The notes beneath the pieces were generated by a model. That model saw nothing but the letters and a program-made list of their open reading frames with translations. It ran no database searches and was not told where the DNA came from. Shown one piece after another: positions 272 through 5,958 of a stretch of 64,000 nt of DNA. A program made the position numbers and the translations under genes. The stretch lies in assembly GCF_024700885.2 (NCBI RefSeq), contig NZ_CP117016.1; one strand, written 5' to 3'. Positions within the stretch are counted from its first letter, which is position 1. Every line of letters starts with the position of its first letter. The stretch comes from Escherichia coli. Lineage in GTDB: Bacteria; Pseudomonadota; Gammaproteobacteria; Enterobacterales; Enterobacteriaceae.

Positions 272-703
272 CTAACCAGGTGTTTGCTGTTGTTCAATGT
301 ATTGACGGATGGCGGATATTGGCGCACCTCCGCAGCTACTGGCAAAATAGCCAGGACTCCACAAAACGCCTTTGTAGTAATACCTGACTGCAATATCTGG
401 TCGATCTCGTCGCAGTAACCTACTCGATACGCCTTTGAGGCTGTTTACCAGACTGGATATCGCCAGTTTGGGAGGATAGTTAATTAACAAATGGACGTGA
501 TCTGGTTCGCCATCCATTTCAACCAGTTCAGCTTCAAAATCAGCACATACCTTTGAAAAGTAAGTGCGTAGTTTTTCTTTCGCGTCATGGTCAAAAATCT
601 GGCGTCGGTATTTGGTGACAAAGACCAGGTGAACATGCATCAGGAAAACACAATGCTTTCCACGCCGGATATCGGTTTCTTTTTTCACAGACCAAAGTAT
701 CAT
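272..703 (-). CDS. tnpA: IS200-like Y1 (HUH) transposase TnpA
   Basis: 143-aa ORF with HVH motif (DHVHLLINYPP), KYRR motif and C-terminal catalytic-type Tyr (IRQYIEQQ); size typical of IS200 TnpA. Confidence 0.85.
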   Translation of the reverse strand: MILWSVKKETDIRRGKHCVFLMHVHLVFVTKYRRQIFDHDAKEKLRTYFSKVCADFEAELVEMDGEPDHVHLLINYPPKLAISSLVNSLKGVSSRLLRRDRPDIAVRYYYKGVLWSPGYFASSCGGAPISAIRQYIEQQQTPG

Positions 704-710
704 TTGACCT

Positions 711-1919
711 GTGAAACGATTACAGGCATTTAAATTCCAGTTAAGACCAGGTGGTCAACAGGAGTGTGAAATGAGGCGCTTCGCAGGCGCATGTCGTTTC
801 GTTTTCAATCGTGCTCTGGCGCTTCAGAATGAGAATCATGAGGCCGGTAATAAATACATCCCTTACGGGAAAATGGCTTCCTGGTTGGTTGAGTGGAAAA
901 ATGCCACTGAAACGCAATGGCTTAAAGATTCTCCCTCACAGCCATTGCAACAGTCACTGAAAGACCTTGAGCGGGCTTACAAAAACTTCTTCCGGAAGCG
1001 GGCTGCTTTTCCCCGATTCAAAAAGCGGGGACAGAATGATGCATTCCGCTACCCGCAGGGCGTTAAGCTCGATCAGGAAAACAGCCGTATTTTTCTGCCG
1101 AAACTTGGCTGGATGCGCTACCGGAACAGCCGTCAGGTCACGGGTGTTGTAAAAAATGTCACTGTCAGCCAGTCCTGCGGTAAGTGGTACATCAGTATTC
1201 AGACAGAAAGTGAAGTATCAACTCCGGATCACCCTTCAGCATCAATGGTCGGGCTGGATGCTGGCGTGGCTAAACTCGCCACGCTGTCAGATGGCACAGT
1301 CTTTGAGCCTGTAAACAGTTTTCAGAAAAACCAGAAGACGCTGGCGAGACTTCAGCGACAGTTAAGCCGCAAGGTCAAATTCAGCAACAACTGGCAGAAG
1401 CAGAAACGCAAAATACAGCGACTGCATTCCTGTATCGCAAATATCCGCAGGGACTACCTTCACAAAGTCACAACGACCGTCAGCAAAAACCACGCAATGA
1501 TAGTCATTGAGGATTTGAAGGTCAGCAACATGTCAAAGTCAGCAGCGGGTACGGTCAGCCAGCCGGGGCGCAATGTCCGGGCAAAATCAGGTTTAAACCG
1601 TTCGATACTGGATCAGGGCTGGTATGAAATGCGCCGCCAGCTTGAGTACAAGCAGCTCTGGCGTGGCGGTCAGGTGCTTGCTGTTCCGCCAGCGTACACA
1701 AGCCAGCGTTGCGCGTGCTGTGGTCATACAGCGAAAGAAAATCGCCTGTCACAAAGTAAATTCAGATGCCAGGCATGTGGATATACAGCGAACGCTGATG
1801 TAAATGGCGCTCGTAACATTTTAGCGGCGGGGCACGCCGTTCTTGCCTGTGGAGAGATGGTGCAGTCAGGCCGCTCGTTGAAGCAGGAACCCACCGAAAT
1901 GATTCAGGCGACAGCCTGA
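711..1919 (+). CDS. tnpB: TnpB (OrfB) RNA-guided endonuclease homolog, IS605/IS1341 type
   Basis: 402-aa ORF with RuvC-I (GLDAGV), RuvC-II (IVIEDLKV), Cys-rich zinc finger (CACCGH...CQACGY) and RuvC-III ([10 protein letters not shown]) motifs, all apparently intact. Confidence 0.9.
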
Positions 1920-3838: not shown

Positions 3839-5251
3839 ATGGTAGATCAGGTAAAAGTCGTTGCCGATGATCAGGCTCCGGCTGAACAGTCGCTACGGCG
3901 CAATCTCACAAACCGACATATTCAGCTTATTGCCATTGGCGGTGCCATTGGTACGGGGTTGTTTATGGGGTCCGGCAAAACGATTAGCCTTGCCGGGCCG
4001 TCGATCATTTTCGTTTATATGATCATCGGTTTTATGCTCTTTTTCGTGATGCGGGCAATGGGGGAATTGCTGCTTTCGAATCTGGAATACAAATCTTTTA
4101 GTGACTTCGCTTCCGATTTACTCGGGCCGTGGGCAGGATATTTCACCGGCTGGACTTACTGGTTCTGCTGGGTTGTAACCGGTATGGCAGACGTGGTGGC
4201 GATCACGGCTTATGCTCAGTTCTGGTTCCCCGAGCTCTCCGACTGGGTCGCCTCGCTGGCGGTGATAGTGCTGCTGCTGACGCTCAACCTCGCCACCGTG
4301 AAAATGTTCGGTGAGATGGAGTTCTGGTTTGCGATGATCAAAATCGTCGCCATTGTGTCGCTGATTGTCGTCGGCCTGGTCATGGTGGCGATGCACTTTC
4401 AGTCACCGACCGGTGTGGAAGCGTCATTCGCGCATTTGTGGAATGATGGCGGCTGGTTCCCGAAAGGTTTAAGTGGCTTCTTTGCCGGATTCCAGATAGC
4501 GGTTTTCGCTTTCGTAGGGATTGAGCTGGTAGGTACAACAGCTGCGGAAACCAAAGATCCAGAGAAATCACTGCCACGCGCGATTAACTCCATTCCGATC
4601 CGTATCATTATGTTCTACGTCTTCGCGCTGATTGTGATTATGTCCGTGACGCCGTGGAGTTCGGTAGTCCCGGAGAAAAGCCCGTTCGTTGAACTGTTCG
4701 TGTTGGTAGGTTTGCCTGCGGCTGCCAGCGTGATCAACTTTGTGGTGCTGACCTCTGCGGCGTCTTCCGCTAACAGCGGTGTCTTCTCTACCAGCCGTAT
4801 GCTGTTTGGTCTGGCGCAGGAAGGTGTGGCACCGAAAGCGTTCGCTAAACTCTCTAAGCGCGCAGTACCCGCGAAAGGGCTGACCTTCTCTTGTATCTGT
4901 CTGCTCGGCGGCGTGGTGATGTTGTATGTGAATCCCAGCGTGATTGGCGCGTTCACGATGATTACAACCGTTTCCGCGATTCTGTTTATGTTCGTCTGGA
5001 CGATTATCCTTTGCTCGTACCTGGTGTATCGCAAACAGCGTCCGCACCTGCATGAGAAATCAATCTACAAGATGCCGCTCGGCAAGCTGATGTGCTGGGT
5101 ATGTATGGCATTCTTTGTGTTCGTGGTCGTGCTGCTGACACTGGAAGATGATACCCGCCAGGCGCTGCTGGTTACCCCGCTGTGGTTTATCGCTCTGGGG
5201 CTGGGCTGGTTGTTTATTGGTAAGAAGCGGGCTGCTGAACTGCGGAAATAA
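3839..5251 (+). CDS. cycA: D-serine/D-alanine/glycine APC-family transporter CycA
   Basis: 470-aa polytopic membrane ORF recognised as CycA. Confidence 0.95.
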   Translation: MVDQVKVVADDQAPAEQSLRRNLTNRHIQLIAIGGAIGTGLFMGSGKTISLAGPSIIFVYMIIGFMLFFVMRAMGELLLSNLEYKSFSDFASDLLGPWAGYFTGWTYWFCWVVTGMADVVAITAYAQFWFPELSDWVASLAVIVLLLTLNLATVKMFGEMEFWFAMIKIVAIVSLIVVGLVMVAMHFQSPTGVEASFAHLWNDGGWFPKGLSGFFAGFQIAVFAFVGIELVGTTAAETKDPEKSLPRAINSIPIRIIMFYVFALIVIMSVTPWSSVVPEKSPFVELFVLVGLPAAASVINFVVLTSAASSANSGVFSTSRMLFGLAQEGVAPKAFAKLSKRAVPAKGLTFSCICLLGGVVMLYVNPSVIGAFTMITTVSAILFMFVWTIILCSYLVYRKQRPHLHEKSIYKMPLGKLMCWVCMAFFVFVVVLLTLEDDTRQALLVTPLWFIALGLGWLFIGKKRAAELRK

Positions 5252-5295
5252 CCGCATTATCATGCTGGATGGCGCAATGCCATCCAGCTTTTAGA

Positions 5296-5958
5296 TCACT
5301 CACCCGCCAGTGCGCGCGGGAACAGCACATTATTTTCCAGGCTGATGTGCTCCATCAGGTCATCAATCAGTTCATTAATGCCGTTATACATCGCTTTCCA
5401 GGTGGTGCAGGCTTCCGGCGGCGGTGTGACGTTATTGGTAGTGTGTTTGATTACTTCCAGCAGTTCACCCGCTTCATCGTGCTCGCTTTCCATTACGCTG
5501 ATTGGCCCCATAGCCTGGCTGCCCATGCCTTGTTTGATCATCGGGAAGAGGATCTGCTCTTCTTTCATCATGTGGCTGGAAAGCTCTTCATGCAGCATAG
5601 TCAGGTATTTTGTCAGCCCTTTTGGCACGCTCGGTTTGTCGGCGTGAACGCGCTCGACTTTAGTCGCTTGCAGGATCAGCTCCGGCAGTTGCTCGCGGTG
5701 ACGATCGTGGTAGCGCACGATGATATGGTCGATGATTTCTGCCAGCGGGGCGCTACGCCAGTCTTTCTCAATCGGTTGTTCAGCAAGCTTTGCCAGCTCA
5801 GCTTCAATGACCTCAACATCCAGTTCTTTACGTGCCGCCGCACGCGCCAGCGTTTGCTTACCGCCGCAGCAGTAATCCATATCATATTTACGAAACAGAG
5901 CTGAAGCGCGAGGAATAGAGAGCGCCAGTTCACCTAAAGGTTGGTCGCGATAAGCCAT
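5296..5958 (-). CDS. ytfE: Iron-sulfur cluster repair di-iron protein YtfE (RIC)
   Basis: 220-aa ORF recognised as YtfE, with an NsrR-type operator immediately upstream. Confidence 0.95.

Follow-up and report, generated by a model that had tools for sequence, protein, structure and literature searches.

In the H. pylori elements IS605 and IS606, tnpA and tnpB are divergent. The two genes point in the same direction and overlap in IS608 and ISDra2, whereas those of IS609 are divergent. Divergent, non-overlapping tnpA and tnpB are found in the IS605-group elements, as in IS609, and close relatives of IS605 have been described as 'divergently transcribed' (Kapitonov et al. 2016, PMC4810608). The layout is thus already known, and what is added here is an explanation in terms of promoters that is tidy and conserved across phyla. 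In the literature, we found no description of promoter architecture or leaderless transcripts for IS605-group elements and nothing on leaderless TnpB or IS200 relevant to bacterial IS605 elements, and insQ is not mentioned in the supplement of a 2026 NAR paper on bidirectional promoters. TnpB and its guide RNA have been studied almost entirely from artificial promoters, and the native control of transposase, nuclease, and guide-RNA levels is poorly known.

The IS609 copy at ytfA

The window analyzed here, 64,000 nucleotides of the E. coli contig NZ_CP117016.1, contains an IS609 copy (IS200/IS605 family, IS605 group) that extends from left to right end over positions 215 to 1962 of the + strand (1748 bp) and has 97% mean column identity, over all 1748 bp, to the K-12 feature annotated 'insertion sequence:IS609'. 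The copy sits in the TetR-type gene ytfA, directly 3' of TTAT (211-214), and the TetR/AcrR fragments that flank it are annotated by PGAP as split pseudogenes. The K-12 copy (the yncK pseudogene and insQ/ydcM, b1432) is the same element with the same ends and lies at another site; its tnpA has an in-frame stop, whereas that of the window copy is intact. In both copies the element is preceded by TTAT and ends in TCAA (two insertion sites compared). The ends carry subterminal hairpins on both sides rather than terminal inverted repeats, with a fixed short target adjoining. The left-end hairpin, CCCCGTCC-TTCA-GGGCGGGG (231-250, not assigned to a strand), has the same loop and stem design as the right-end hairpin (1933-1952), both read from the sequence, and the element terminates in GTCAA at 1962. 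The putative guide-RNA (omega-RNA) region, 1792-1975 on the + strand, comprises the 3' end of tnpB and the right end with its hairpin; all of its Rfam matches are below threshold (HgcC, 24.6 vs 50 bits; sot0042, 17.6 vs 88 bits; RAGATH-18, 29.5 vs 44.9 bits). We take HgcC and sot0042 to be TnpB-linked RNAs.

Both genes are intact, and TnpA and TnpB both retain the residues aligned to catalytic positions in their solved homologues. As annotated, tnpA (272-703, - strand) encodes a Y1/HUH transposase of 143 residues, with matches to Pfam Y1_Tnp (147.8 bits, E=2e-43, residues 18-139) and NCBIfam transpos_IS200 (149.6 bits, cut-off 55, residues 13-138); its homologues in the PDB include the TnpA proteins of IS608 and ISDra2. 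The 402-residue ORF of tnpB (insQ; 711-1919, + strand) reads toward the right end of IS609 and matches Pfam OrfB_IS605, Cas12f1-like_TNB, and HTH_OrfB_IS605, NCBIfam guided_TnpB (387.7 bits, cut-off 100), and PDB entries. Most E. coli genomes (5034 of 5426) carry IS609 at fixed sites, in a median of 3 places, while the ytfA insertion occurs in a minority of strains only (61 records at >=99%), which implies mobility of IS609 within E. coli. The window copy is an ordinary element, and the explanation of its spacer is modestly new.

Start codons and mapped transcription starts

The preliminary description placed the divergent start codons of tnpA and tnpB only 7 bp apart. The coordinates are exact: the annotated tnpA ATG occupies 703-701 on the - strand, the tnpB GTG occupies 711-713, and the two are separated by the 7 bp TTGACCT (704-710). 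PGAP gives the same starts in an identical E. coli genome, and the annotated gap of K-12 IS609 is also 7 bp. As a property of the family, however, the spacing does not hold. Our comparison covered 63 compact loci, non-redundant and drawn from several bacterial phyla, 61 of them non-E. coli relatives; the loci are phylogenetically related, and counts over them are therefore not independent events. The clade is found in gamma-, beta-, alpha-, and deltaproteobacteria, Melainabacteria, Acidobacteria, and Bacillota.

The tnpB start at GTG 711 is secure. An in-frame TGA lies just upstream (705-707), the HTH_OrfB_IS605 profile spans TnpB residues 1-48, TnpB aligns colinearly with the solved ISDra2 TnpB beginning at residue 3, and the start position is an ATG in 58 of the 63 loci. 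An alternative at ATG 771 (Met21) has a good ribosome-binding site, the canonical AGGAG-N6-ATG at 760-773 (+ strand, read from the sequence), but was rejected as the tnpB start because 20 conserved N-terminal residues would be lost. Met21 is a conserved hydrophobic residue in the relatives, and codons resembling a Shine-Dalgarno occur in the enterobacterial subgroup only; judging from the sequence, Met21 could serve as a secondary start on long transcripts, at the cost of the conserved N-terminus.

Published K-12 data place the 5' end of the tnpB mRNA at this codon. Kim et al. (2012, PMC3415461), who enriched primary transcripts with terminator exonuclease, list 18 leaderless E. coli genes, with ydcM/insQ among them. 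In their Table S4 ('leaderless mRNAs'), the ydcM transcription start site (TSS) at 1501681 equals the gene start, with a 5'UTR of 0 and 14 reads, and the 51-mer upstream of it is identical to window positions 661-711. In an independent K-12 set, obtained by SMRT-Cappable-seq, the b1432 TSS is at 1503656 and the GTG at 1503657. As transcription in identical sequence thus starts on the tnpB start codon (711) or one nucleotide before it (710), the tnpB mRNA is leaderless.

The preliminary description had reasoned that, unless the true start codons differ, transcription must begin inside the opposing coding sequences. Such starts are indeed found in K-12, at 355 (+) and 1185 (-), but the main mapped tnpB start lies on the gene's own start codon. 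The start at 355, inside and antisense to tnpA (343-355, + strand), is TSS 1501325 of Table S1 of Kim et al. 2012; the 51-mer ending at 355 matches at 49 of 51 positions. Its signal is the stronger one (28 vs 14 reads), and the leaderless start is therefore not the sole source of tnpB RNA in K-12. The start at 1185 (TSS 1502155 of Kim et al., 2 reads, 50/51 match ending at 1185) is weak and is associated with a promoter-like TTGATA-16-AATACT found by the promoter scan inside tnpB and directed toward tnpA (1185-1221, - strand).

The annotated tnpA start is a different matter. Codon 6, a GTG in the window (686-688, - strand), is conserved as ATG in 61/61 relatives, and in 23 of the 63 loci an in-frame stop leaves this ATG as the earliest possible start. 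Most TnpA homologues are annotated as 138 residues long, from the codon-6 position. When tnpA is taken from codon 6, the gap between the start codons is 20-23 bp across the family, and a plasmid-borne E. coli relative has an annotated gap of 22 bp. On these grounds, ATG 703 is probably not the family start of tnpA, GTG 688, five codons further in, being the better candidate, and the gene has probably been called five codons too early in IS609-type copies. This agrees with the alternative raised in the preliminary description, that the true start differs from the annotated one, although not with its suggestion of Met22, in the motif MHVHLVFV. A start there would cost the protein residues 9-21, all of them invariant or almost invariant, and would truncate the profiles Y1_Tnp (from residue 18) and transpos_IS200 (from residue 12-13); the solved TnpA homologues begin at the equivalents of residues 3-10. 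The 7-bp gap, to judge from the alignment, is specific to the IS609 lineage: an A-to-C change in a -10 box, discussed below, created ATG 703, so that the annotated starts look only 7 bp apart.

It is also conceivable that in the E. coli lineage translation of TnpA truly begins at ATG 703, which would make the 7-bp gap real, with tnpA expressed from leadered transcripts begun in tnpB and tnpB expressed partly from within tnpA. The ATG is present and preceded by a weak Shine-Dalgarno-like AGG at 710-708, but the 4-nt spacing makes this a poor ribosome-binding site. The change of the codon-6 ATG to GTG is confined to the lineage that gained the upstream ATG, and Salmonella and Photorhabdus variants carry both ATGs (MILWSM), in line with a shifted start site. 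Most relatives, however, lack the MILWS extension or have it out of frame. In many loci the conserved ATG is preceded by a stop at a distance of 4-8 codons, in 23 of 63 a stop precludes any extension, and we rejected MILWS as coding. The K-12 starts inside the opposing genes would fit such expression, the promoter-like site at 1221-1194 matching the start at 1185, but the latter has 2 reads only. The core described in the next section is weakened in the E. coli copy; the tnpB start mapped at 711 nevertheless demonstrates that the core promoter remains active in E. coli. Overall, we consider a genuine start at ATG 703 rather unlikely.

A predicted two-way promoter on a shared -10 core

Between the two family start positions lies a -10 core shared by both strands, AGTATCAT (696-703). 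On the + strand, the tnpB side, it reads TATCAT (698-703; TATAAT in relatives), and the annotated ATG of tnpA is the CAT of this hexamer (701-703). On the - strand, the tnpA side, it reads GATACT (701-696; TATAcT or TATAgT in relatives), 7 nt upstream of 688. The TTGACCT between the tnpB -10 and the TSS (704-710, + strand) is not conserved (major-allele frequency 0.33-0.65). The -35 position of the tnpB promoter falls within tnpA codons (GTTTCT, 675-680, + strand, 2/6 matches), where many distant relatives have TTGTCA or TTGTTA at 16-18 bp, and that of the tnpA-side promoter falls within tnpB codons 4-5 (CTGTAA, 720-725, - strand, 3/6), aligned with TTGAAG, TTGTAG, or TTGCAA in relatives. There is no room for two conventional promoters, as had been noted from the sequence, and parts of both, the -35 positions, lie inside the opposing genes. 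Agreement with the -35 consensus is modest (3-4 of 6 in most cases) and may partly reflect coding constraint, since these positions overlap coding sequence.

The -10 hexamers are considerably better conserved. The + hexamer matches TATAAT at 5 or more of 6 positions in 61 of the 63 loci, perfectly in 31, and is separated from the tnpB start by 6-7 nt in 60; the - hexamer does so at 5 or more positions in 51, at 6-8 nt upstream of the tnpA ATG. The two overlap by 4 bp in 55/63 loci, and the start-to-start distance is 21-24 bp, mostly 23. The base that provides T6 of the - hexamer is an A in 54 of 61 relatives, even though the + promoter has no need of it. By chance, such a -10 occurs at about 1% of window positions and at 2/114 ORF starts. 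Neither tnpA nor tnpB is preceded by a Shine-Dalgarno. The generic promoter scan of the E. coli sequence did not report the shared core, because it requires 4/6 matches in both hexamers.

We therefore propose, with a probability of roughly 0.7, that the tnpA/tnpB spacer is a compact bidirectional sigma-70 promoter built on one palindromic TATA core, which yields a leaderless tnpB mRNA and a predicted leaderless tnpA mRNA. TATCAT on the + strand would drive transcription from the first base of the tnpB start codon, giving an mRNA with neither leader nor Shine-Dalgarno, while GATACT on the - strand would direct a leaderless tnpA mRNA starting at 688, 23 bp from the tnpB start, the -35 positions of both falling within the first codons of the opposing genes. 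As the -10 region is common to the two binding modes of RNA polymerase, these should exclude one another at the IS609 core. As neither ORF has a ribosome-binding site, read-through and long antisense transcripts should be poorly translated, which would insulate both genes from read-through. The tnpA-side start position is inferred from the alignment, and in the relatives a leaderless tnpA mRNA is probable on the same grounds. The K-12 TSS tables covered here contain no minus-strand start near 688, in a shallow dataset and for a copy in which tnpA is a pseudogene with a weakened GATACT; the tnpA half of the model thus rests on sequence conservation.

Other readings of the surrounding sequence were considered and dismissed. 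TTGACC (704-709) and GGTCAA (753-758), around the palindrome ATTTAAAT, could be taken for face-to-face internal promoters, but they are not conserved in relatives, and the K-12 TSS tables list no start near 740 or 722. CTG-N11-CAG has the wrong spacing for a LexA box. The terminator-like hairpin CCTGTGA-AACGA-TTACAGG around the tnpB GTG (708-726, + strand) has a folding energy of -8.6 kcal/mol (z -2.96) on the + strand, is not significant on the - strand, and is confined to the E. coli lineage; its absence from relatives rules against a conserved regulator. It forms only in transcripts starting upstream of 708 and is hence impossible in the leaderless one.

In the E. coli lineage the signals are weakened: both starts are GTG, a single A-to-C change hits both -10 boxes, and the TTG of the tnpA-side -35 has become CTG. 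Efficient leaderless translation in E. coli needs a 5'-terminal AUG, and leaderless GUG starts are poorly translated there; tnpA (at codon 6) and tnpB both start with GTG in the window copy and in K-12. The tight spacing may have no regulatory meaning here, IS609 in E. coli being a decaying and largely silent element whose promoter-like features are ancestral relics. The degraded start codons and hexamers would fit this, as would the in-frame stop in K-12 tnpA and the fixed sites in most E. coli genomes. On the other hand, tnpA and tnpB of the window copy are intact, with the catalytic-aligned residues conserved, the ytfA insertion in a minority of strains implies mobility, and the tnpB start is detected by two methods. 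An entirely relict spacer is, in our judgment, unlikely.

One feature of the spacer is not accounted for by the promoter model, namely the near-invariance, on the tnpA side only, of the non-coding 7-mer AGACCAA (689-695, not assigned to a strand; TTGGTCT as read in the direction of tnpA), which separates the tnpA start from the -10 core. Its major-allele frequency is 0.78-1.0, compared to 0.60-0.62 at neighboring third codon positions. It persists where the spacer is longer or no tnpB adjoins, stays fixed beside the tnpA ATG when the distance to the -10 shifts, and is not part of a conserved RNA helix.

Such conservation goes far beyond what a spacer between -10 and start requires and, together with the missing Shine-Dalgarno, might be taken to mean that the conserved segment is an A/U-rich, Shine-Dalgarno-independent translation-initiation region, or a protein operator, for two leadered mRNAs. 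Several observations make this very unlikely. The hexamers specifically match TATAAT, with A2 and T6 kept on both strands. Their distance to the start codons, 6-8 nt, is canonical, and TTG-type -35 elements are found 16-18 bp away. Furthermore, the primary 5' end of tnpB is on its start codon, so that the tnpB side of the spacer is not transcribed.

Extended to the clade, the bidirectional promoter would have wider consequences. TnpA, TnpB, and, by way of tnpB, the guide-RNA precursor would be made from leaderless mRNAs of one promoter of about 23 bp, in which the orientation of the polymerase sets the TnpA:TnpB ratio, the absence of ribosome-binding sites insulates both genes from host read-through, and the invariant GGTCT by the tnpA ATG serves as an added control site. 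We offer this broader proposal tentatively, at somewhat less than even odds. If true, a shared -10 leaderless promoter would be a minimal host-independent expression module, able to function whatever the host, leaderless translation being universal; TnpA would be balanced against TnpB by the competing orientations of the polymerase, and both would be shielded from outside transcription. For annotation, the point is that the tnpA ATG called in IS609-type copies is part of the tnpB -10 box.

Comparison with leaderless mRNAs, IS200, and shared -10 promoters

Lambda cI and Tn1721 tetR are known to have leaderless mRNAs. Like the leaderless mRNAs of E. coli, the tnpB mRNA lacks a Shine-Dalgarno and begins at the first nucleotide of its start codon; the E. 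coli copy has GUG where the relatives have AUG.

Salmonella IS200, which has tnpA only, IS608, and ISDra2 share with IS609 the transposase family and the subterminal hairpins. The mRNA of IS200 is leadered, with a stem-loop that hides the ribosome-binding site, and is additionally subject to the antisense RNA art200. Themes common to the two elements are a weakly expressed transposase and a transcript antisense to tnpA (the start at 355 in the case of IS609). In contrast to the IS200-type leader stem-loop, no conserved RNA structure was found at the tnpA start of the IS609 relatives (RNAalifold, 23 relatives; consensus of -0.47 kcal/mol, with no helix near the start).

The closest parallel for the promoter itself is given by the shared -10 bidirectional promoters of Warman et al. 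(2021), for which the summary in PMC12825309 gives distances of 18, 10, or 23 bp between the divergent starts and mutually exclusive polymerase binding. By that account of the sigma-70 promoters, the IS609-type core is likewise an overlap of -10 elements on opposite strands, and its predicted starts, 21-24 bp apart, would fit the 23-bp class; low basal activity and mutually exclusive binding would then be expected by analogy. The IS609-type core differs in that its starts, the mapped one of tnpB and the predicted one of tnpA, coincide with start codons, so that both products would be leaderless, and in that it is borne by a mobile element and conserved across phyla.

Element and annotated starts

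The element at 215-1962 is a copy of IS609, showing 97% identity with the K-12 feature 'insertion sequence:IS609'. It encodes a Y1/HUH transposase (tnpA; Pfam Y1_Tnp, NCBIfam transpos_IS200) and a TnpB RNA-guided nuclease (tnpB; Pfam OrfB_IS605, Cas12f1-like_TNB and HTH_OrfB_IS605, NCBIfam guided_TnpB), in the divergent arrangement already known for the IS605 group (PMC4810608). TTAT directly precedes the left end, TCAA forms the right terminus, and subterminal hairpins lie at 231-250 and 1933-1952. The TetR-type gene ytfA is interrupted, its pieces lying at 26-214 and 1963-2070. Among 5426 complete E. coli genomes, 5034 carry IS609-like DNA, and a query containing the ytfA junctions has matches of at least 99% in 61 E. 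coli records only; the ytfA insertion is thus relatively recent and strain-variable. Over the tnpB 3' end and right end (1792-1975, + strand), Rfam matches to HgcC, sot0042 and RAGATH-18 stay below threshold. HgcC and sot0042 are RNAs linked with TnpB guide RNAs in other organisms, and the IS609 guide RNA presumably lies in this stretch.

As annotated, tnpA (272-703, - strand, 143 aa) starts at ATG 703-701 and tnpB (711-1919, + strand, 402 aa) at GTG 711-713, separated by the seven bases TTGACCT. An E. coli genome of identical sequence carries the same coordinates in its PGAP annotation, and the K-12 copy likewise has a 7-bp gap, so the divergent start codons 7 bp apart of the preliminary description are correct as annotation. 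Its corollary, that transcription starts inside the opposing genes or the true starts differ, holds in part: the family start of tnpA probably does differ, and the -35 hexamers lie inside the opposing genes, but the main mapped tnpB start is on its own GTG.

A -10 element in the spacer and leaderless tnpB

The spacer between the two genes holds a -10 element, tnpB transcription begins on tnpB's own start codon, and this architecture is conserved across phyla. Primary 5' ends of K-12 MG1655, obtained by terminator-exonuclease enrichment and modified 5'RACE sequencing (Kim et al. 2012, PMC3415461), include ydcM (b1432, now insQ) in Table S4, 'Leaderless mRNAs', with the TSS at the gene start (1501681), a 5'UTR length of 0 and 14 reads; the upstream 51-mer listed there (CACGCC...TATCATTTGACCTG) is identical to window 661-711. 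SMRT-Cappable-seq, an independent method, has a b1432 transcription unit that begins at 1503656 (Supplementary Data 2, PMC6131387). The tnpB GTG is 1503657 in NC_000913.3. This table may be 0-based, because it has thrL at 147 rather than 148; under either numbering the tnpB start falls 0-1 nt from G711 and 7-8 nt downstream of TATCAT, which fits the expectation for a sigma-70 promoter.

GTG 711 is the sole candidate for the tnpB start. An in-frame TGA lies just upstream (705-707), the HTH_OrfB_IS605 profile spans TnpB residues 1-48, the guided_TnpB profile starts at residue 7, and the protein is colinear with the solved ISDra2 TnpB from residue 3 onward. The canonical AGGAG-N6-ATG at Met21 (760-773, +) could give an N-terminally shortened TnpB off long transcripts.

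We fetched 80 loci, each encoding a TnpA relative (63-86% identical), from gamma-, beta-, alpha- and delta-proteobacteria, Melainabacteria, Granulicella and one Bacillota metagenome-assembled genome, and almost every one carries a divergent tnpB in the same close arrangement. In the 63 non-redundant compact loci the start codons are 18-23 nt apart (20-23 in all except one), with the consensus CAT-AGRCCAA-N(1-3)-TATAAT-N(6-7)-ATG, and the position of GTG 711 is ATG in 58. The + hexamer matches TATAAT in at least 5/6 bases in 61 loci (perfectly in 31) and ends 6-7 nt before tnpB in 60, and the - hexamer, TATAcT or TATAgT, reaches at least 5/6 in 51, its end being 6-8 nt from the tnpA ATG. The palindromic TATA common to both makes a 4-bp overlap in 55 of the 63, and the base giving T6 of the - hexamer, dispensable for the + promoter, is an A in 54 of the 61 relatives. 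On each side a TTG-type -35 hexamer is found at a distance of 16-18 bp, where the opposing gene has its first codons; the arrangement TTGTCA-17-TATAAT-6-ATG occurs in several distant relatives. In the compact loci both ATGs lack a Shine-Dalgarno sequence. By chance, a comparable -10 at that distance occurs at about 1% of positions in the 64-kb window and at 2 of 114 mechanical ORF starts.

Six relatives (L047, L059, L068, L074, L077 and L037) have spacers of 32-49 nt that keep the tnpA-proximal TATA and GGTCT motif and carry additional DNA ahead of tnpB, some with its own TTGACA-like hexamer; tnpB would be leadered there. A 2057-bp contig labeled Streptomyces mutabilis (L009, NZ_BMTT01000064.1) carries an element with nearly the same core as the copy from Proteus mirabilis (L015) and looks like contamination, a short enterobacterial-type contig within a Streptomyces assembly.

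The near-invariance of AGACCAA (689-695; TTGGTCT-ATG on the tnpA strand) is without explanation in the promoter model. In some 60 loci spanning several phyla its conservation is 0.78-1.0, versus 0.60-0.62 at adjacent third codon positions and only 0.33-0.65 for the equivalent tnpB-side stretch, and GGTCT adjoins the tnpA ATG also in longer-spacer loci and in loci without adjacent tnpB. The motif is non-coding and belongs to no conserved RNA helix.

K-12 has further transcripts here. A second + start in the table of Kim et al., at 355 (343-355; 28 reads), exceeds the leaderless start in reads; it lies inside and antisense to tnpA. A long RNA running in the tnpB direction from there would pair with most of the tnpA mRNA, which recalls the antisense control in IS200. 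Within tnpB, a weak - start at 1185 (2 reads) directed toward tnpA coincides with a promoter-like site of our scan (1221-1194, -; TTGATA-16-AATACT). SMRT-Cappable-seq also lists a read-through transcript ydcL-insQ (b1431-b1432) across the left end (PMC6131387). A hairpin around the tnpB GTG (708-726, 7-bp stem, RNA -8.6 kcal/mol, z -2.96), present in the E. coli lineage only, can form only in transcripts begun upstream (read-through or from 355), never in the leaderless mRNA.

The tnpA start and the derived state of E. coli IS609

Met22 (MHVHLVFV), suggested in the preliminary description as an alternative tnpA start, is contradicted by the homologues: residues 9-21 are invariant or almost so, family profiles begin at residues 12-18, and solved homologues begin at the equivalents of residues 3-10. 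Homologue alignments place the family start at codon 6, and ATG 703, although annotated, is probably not where the family starts. Codon 6 is a conserved ATG in 61/61 non-E. coli compact loci and the earliest start possible after an in-frame stop in 23 of the 63, possible upstream starts in the remainder being scattered and inconsistent in position. Of the 120 closest protein clusters, roughly half have TnpA annotated from this Met, and a plasmid-borne E. coli relative has a PGAP tnpA of 138 aa, 22 bp from tnpB.

In the window and in K-12 codon 6 is GTG (688-686), and both starts of E. coli IS609 are GTG. One A-to-C change at 701 converts TATAAT to TATCAT and, on the other strand, TATACT to GATACT, and ATG 703 arose from it; the annotated tnpA ATG (CAT, 701-703) is the three final bases of the tnpB -10 box (698-703). 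The tnpA-side -35 has gone from TTG to CTG by a synonymous CAA-to-CAG change. The IS609 tnpA start may have moved to 703, and both ATGs are present in Salmonella and Photorhabdus variants (MILWSM); alternatively, tnpA expression may simply have been lowered. The K-12 start tables examined hold no - start near 688; tnpA there (yncK, 5219-5650 of the fetched K-12 locus) has a weakened hexamer and is a pseudogene because of an in-frame stop at codon 96.

A proposed shared -10 and known promoter classes

In consensus-type elements the overlapping - strand -10 would give a leaderless tnpA mRNA, the predicted tnpA and tnpB starts being 21-24 bp apart. Competition via the shared -10 could then provide a simple balance of TnpA versus TnpB and guide-RNA precursor, and outside or internal antisense transcripts would be poorly translated, since they lack a ribosome-binding site.

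The element, its divergent arrangement and the insQ transcription start are already public. Our literature search found no published description of a conserved shared -10, double-leaderless architecture for this clade, nor a publication noting the IS609 tnpA start codon inside the tnpB -10 box, points that concern researchers on TnpB and transposon regulation. The IS609 core falls among two established classes, leaderless mRNAs and bidirectional promoters. Bidirectional promoters with a common -10 include a '23 bp' class, in which polymerase binding is mutually exclusive by orientation and basal activity is low (PMC12825309), and the start distance predicted here fits that class.
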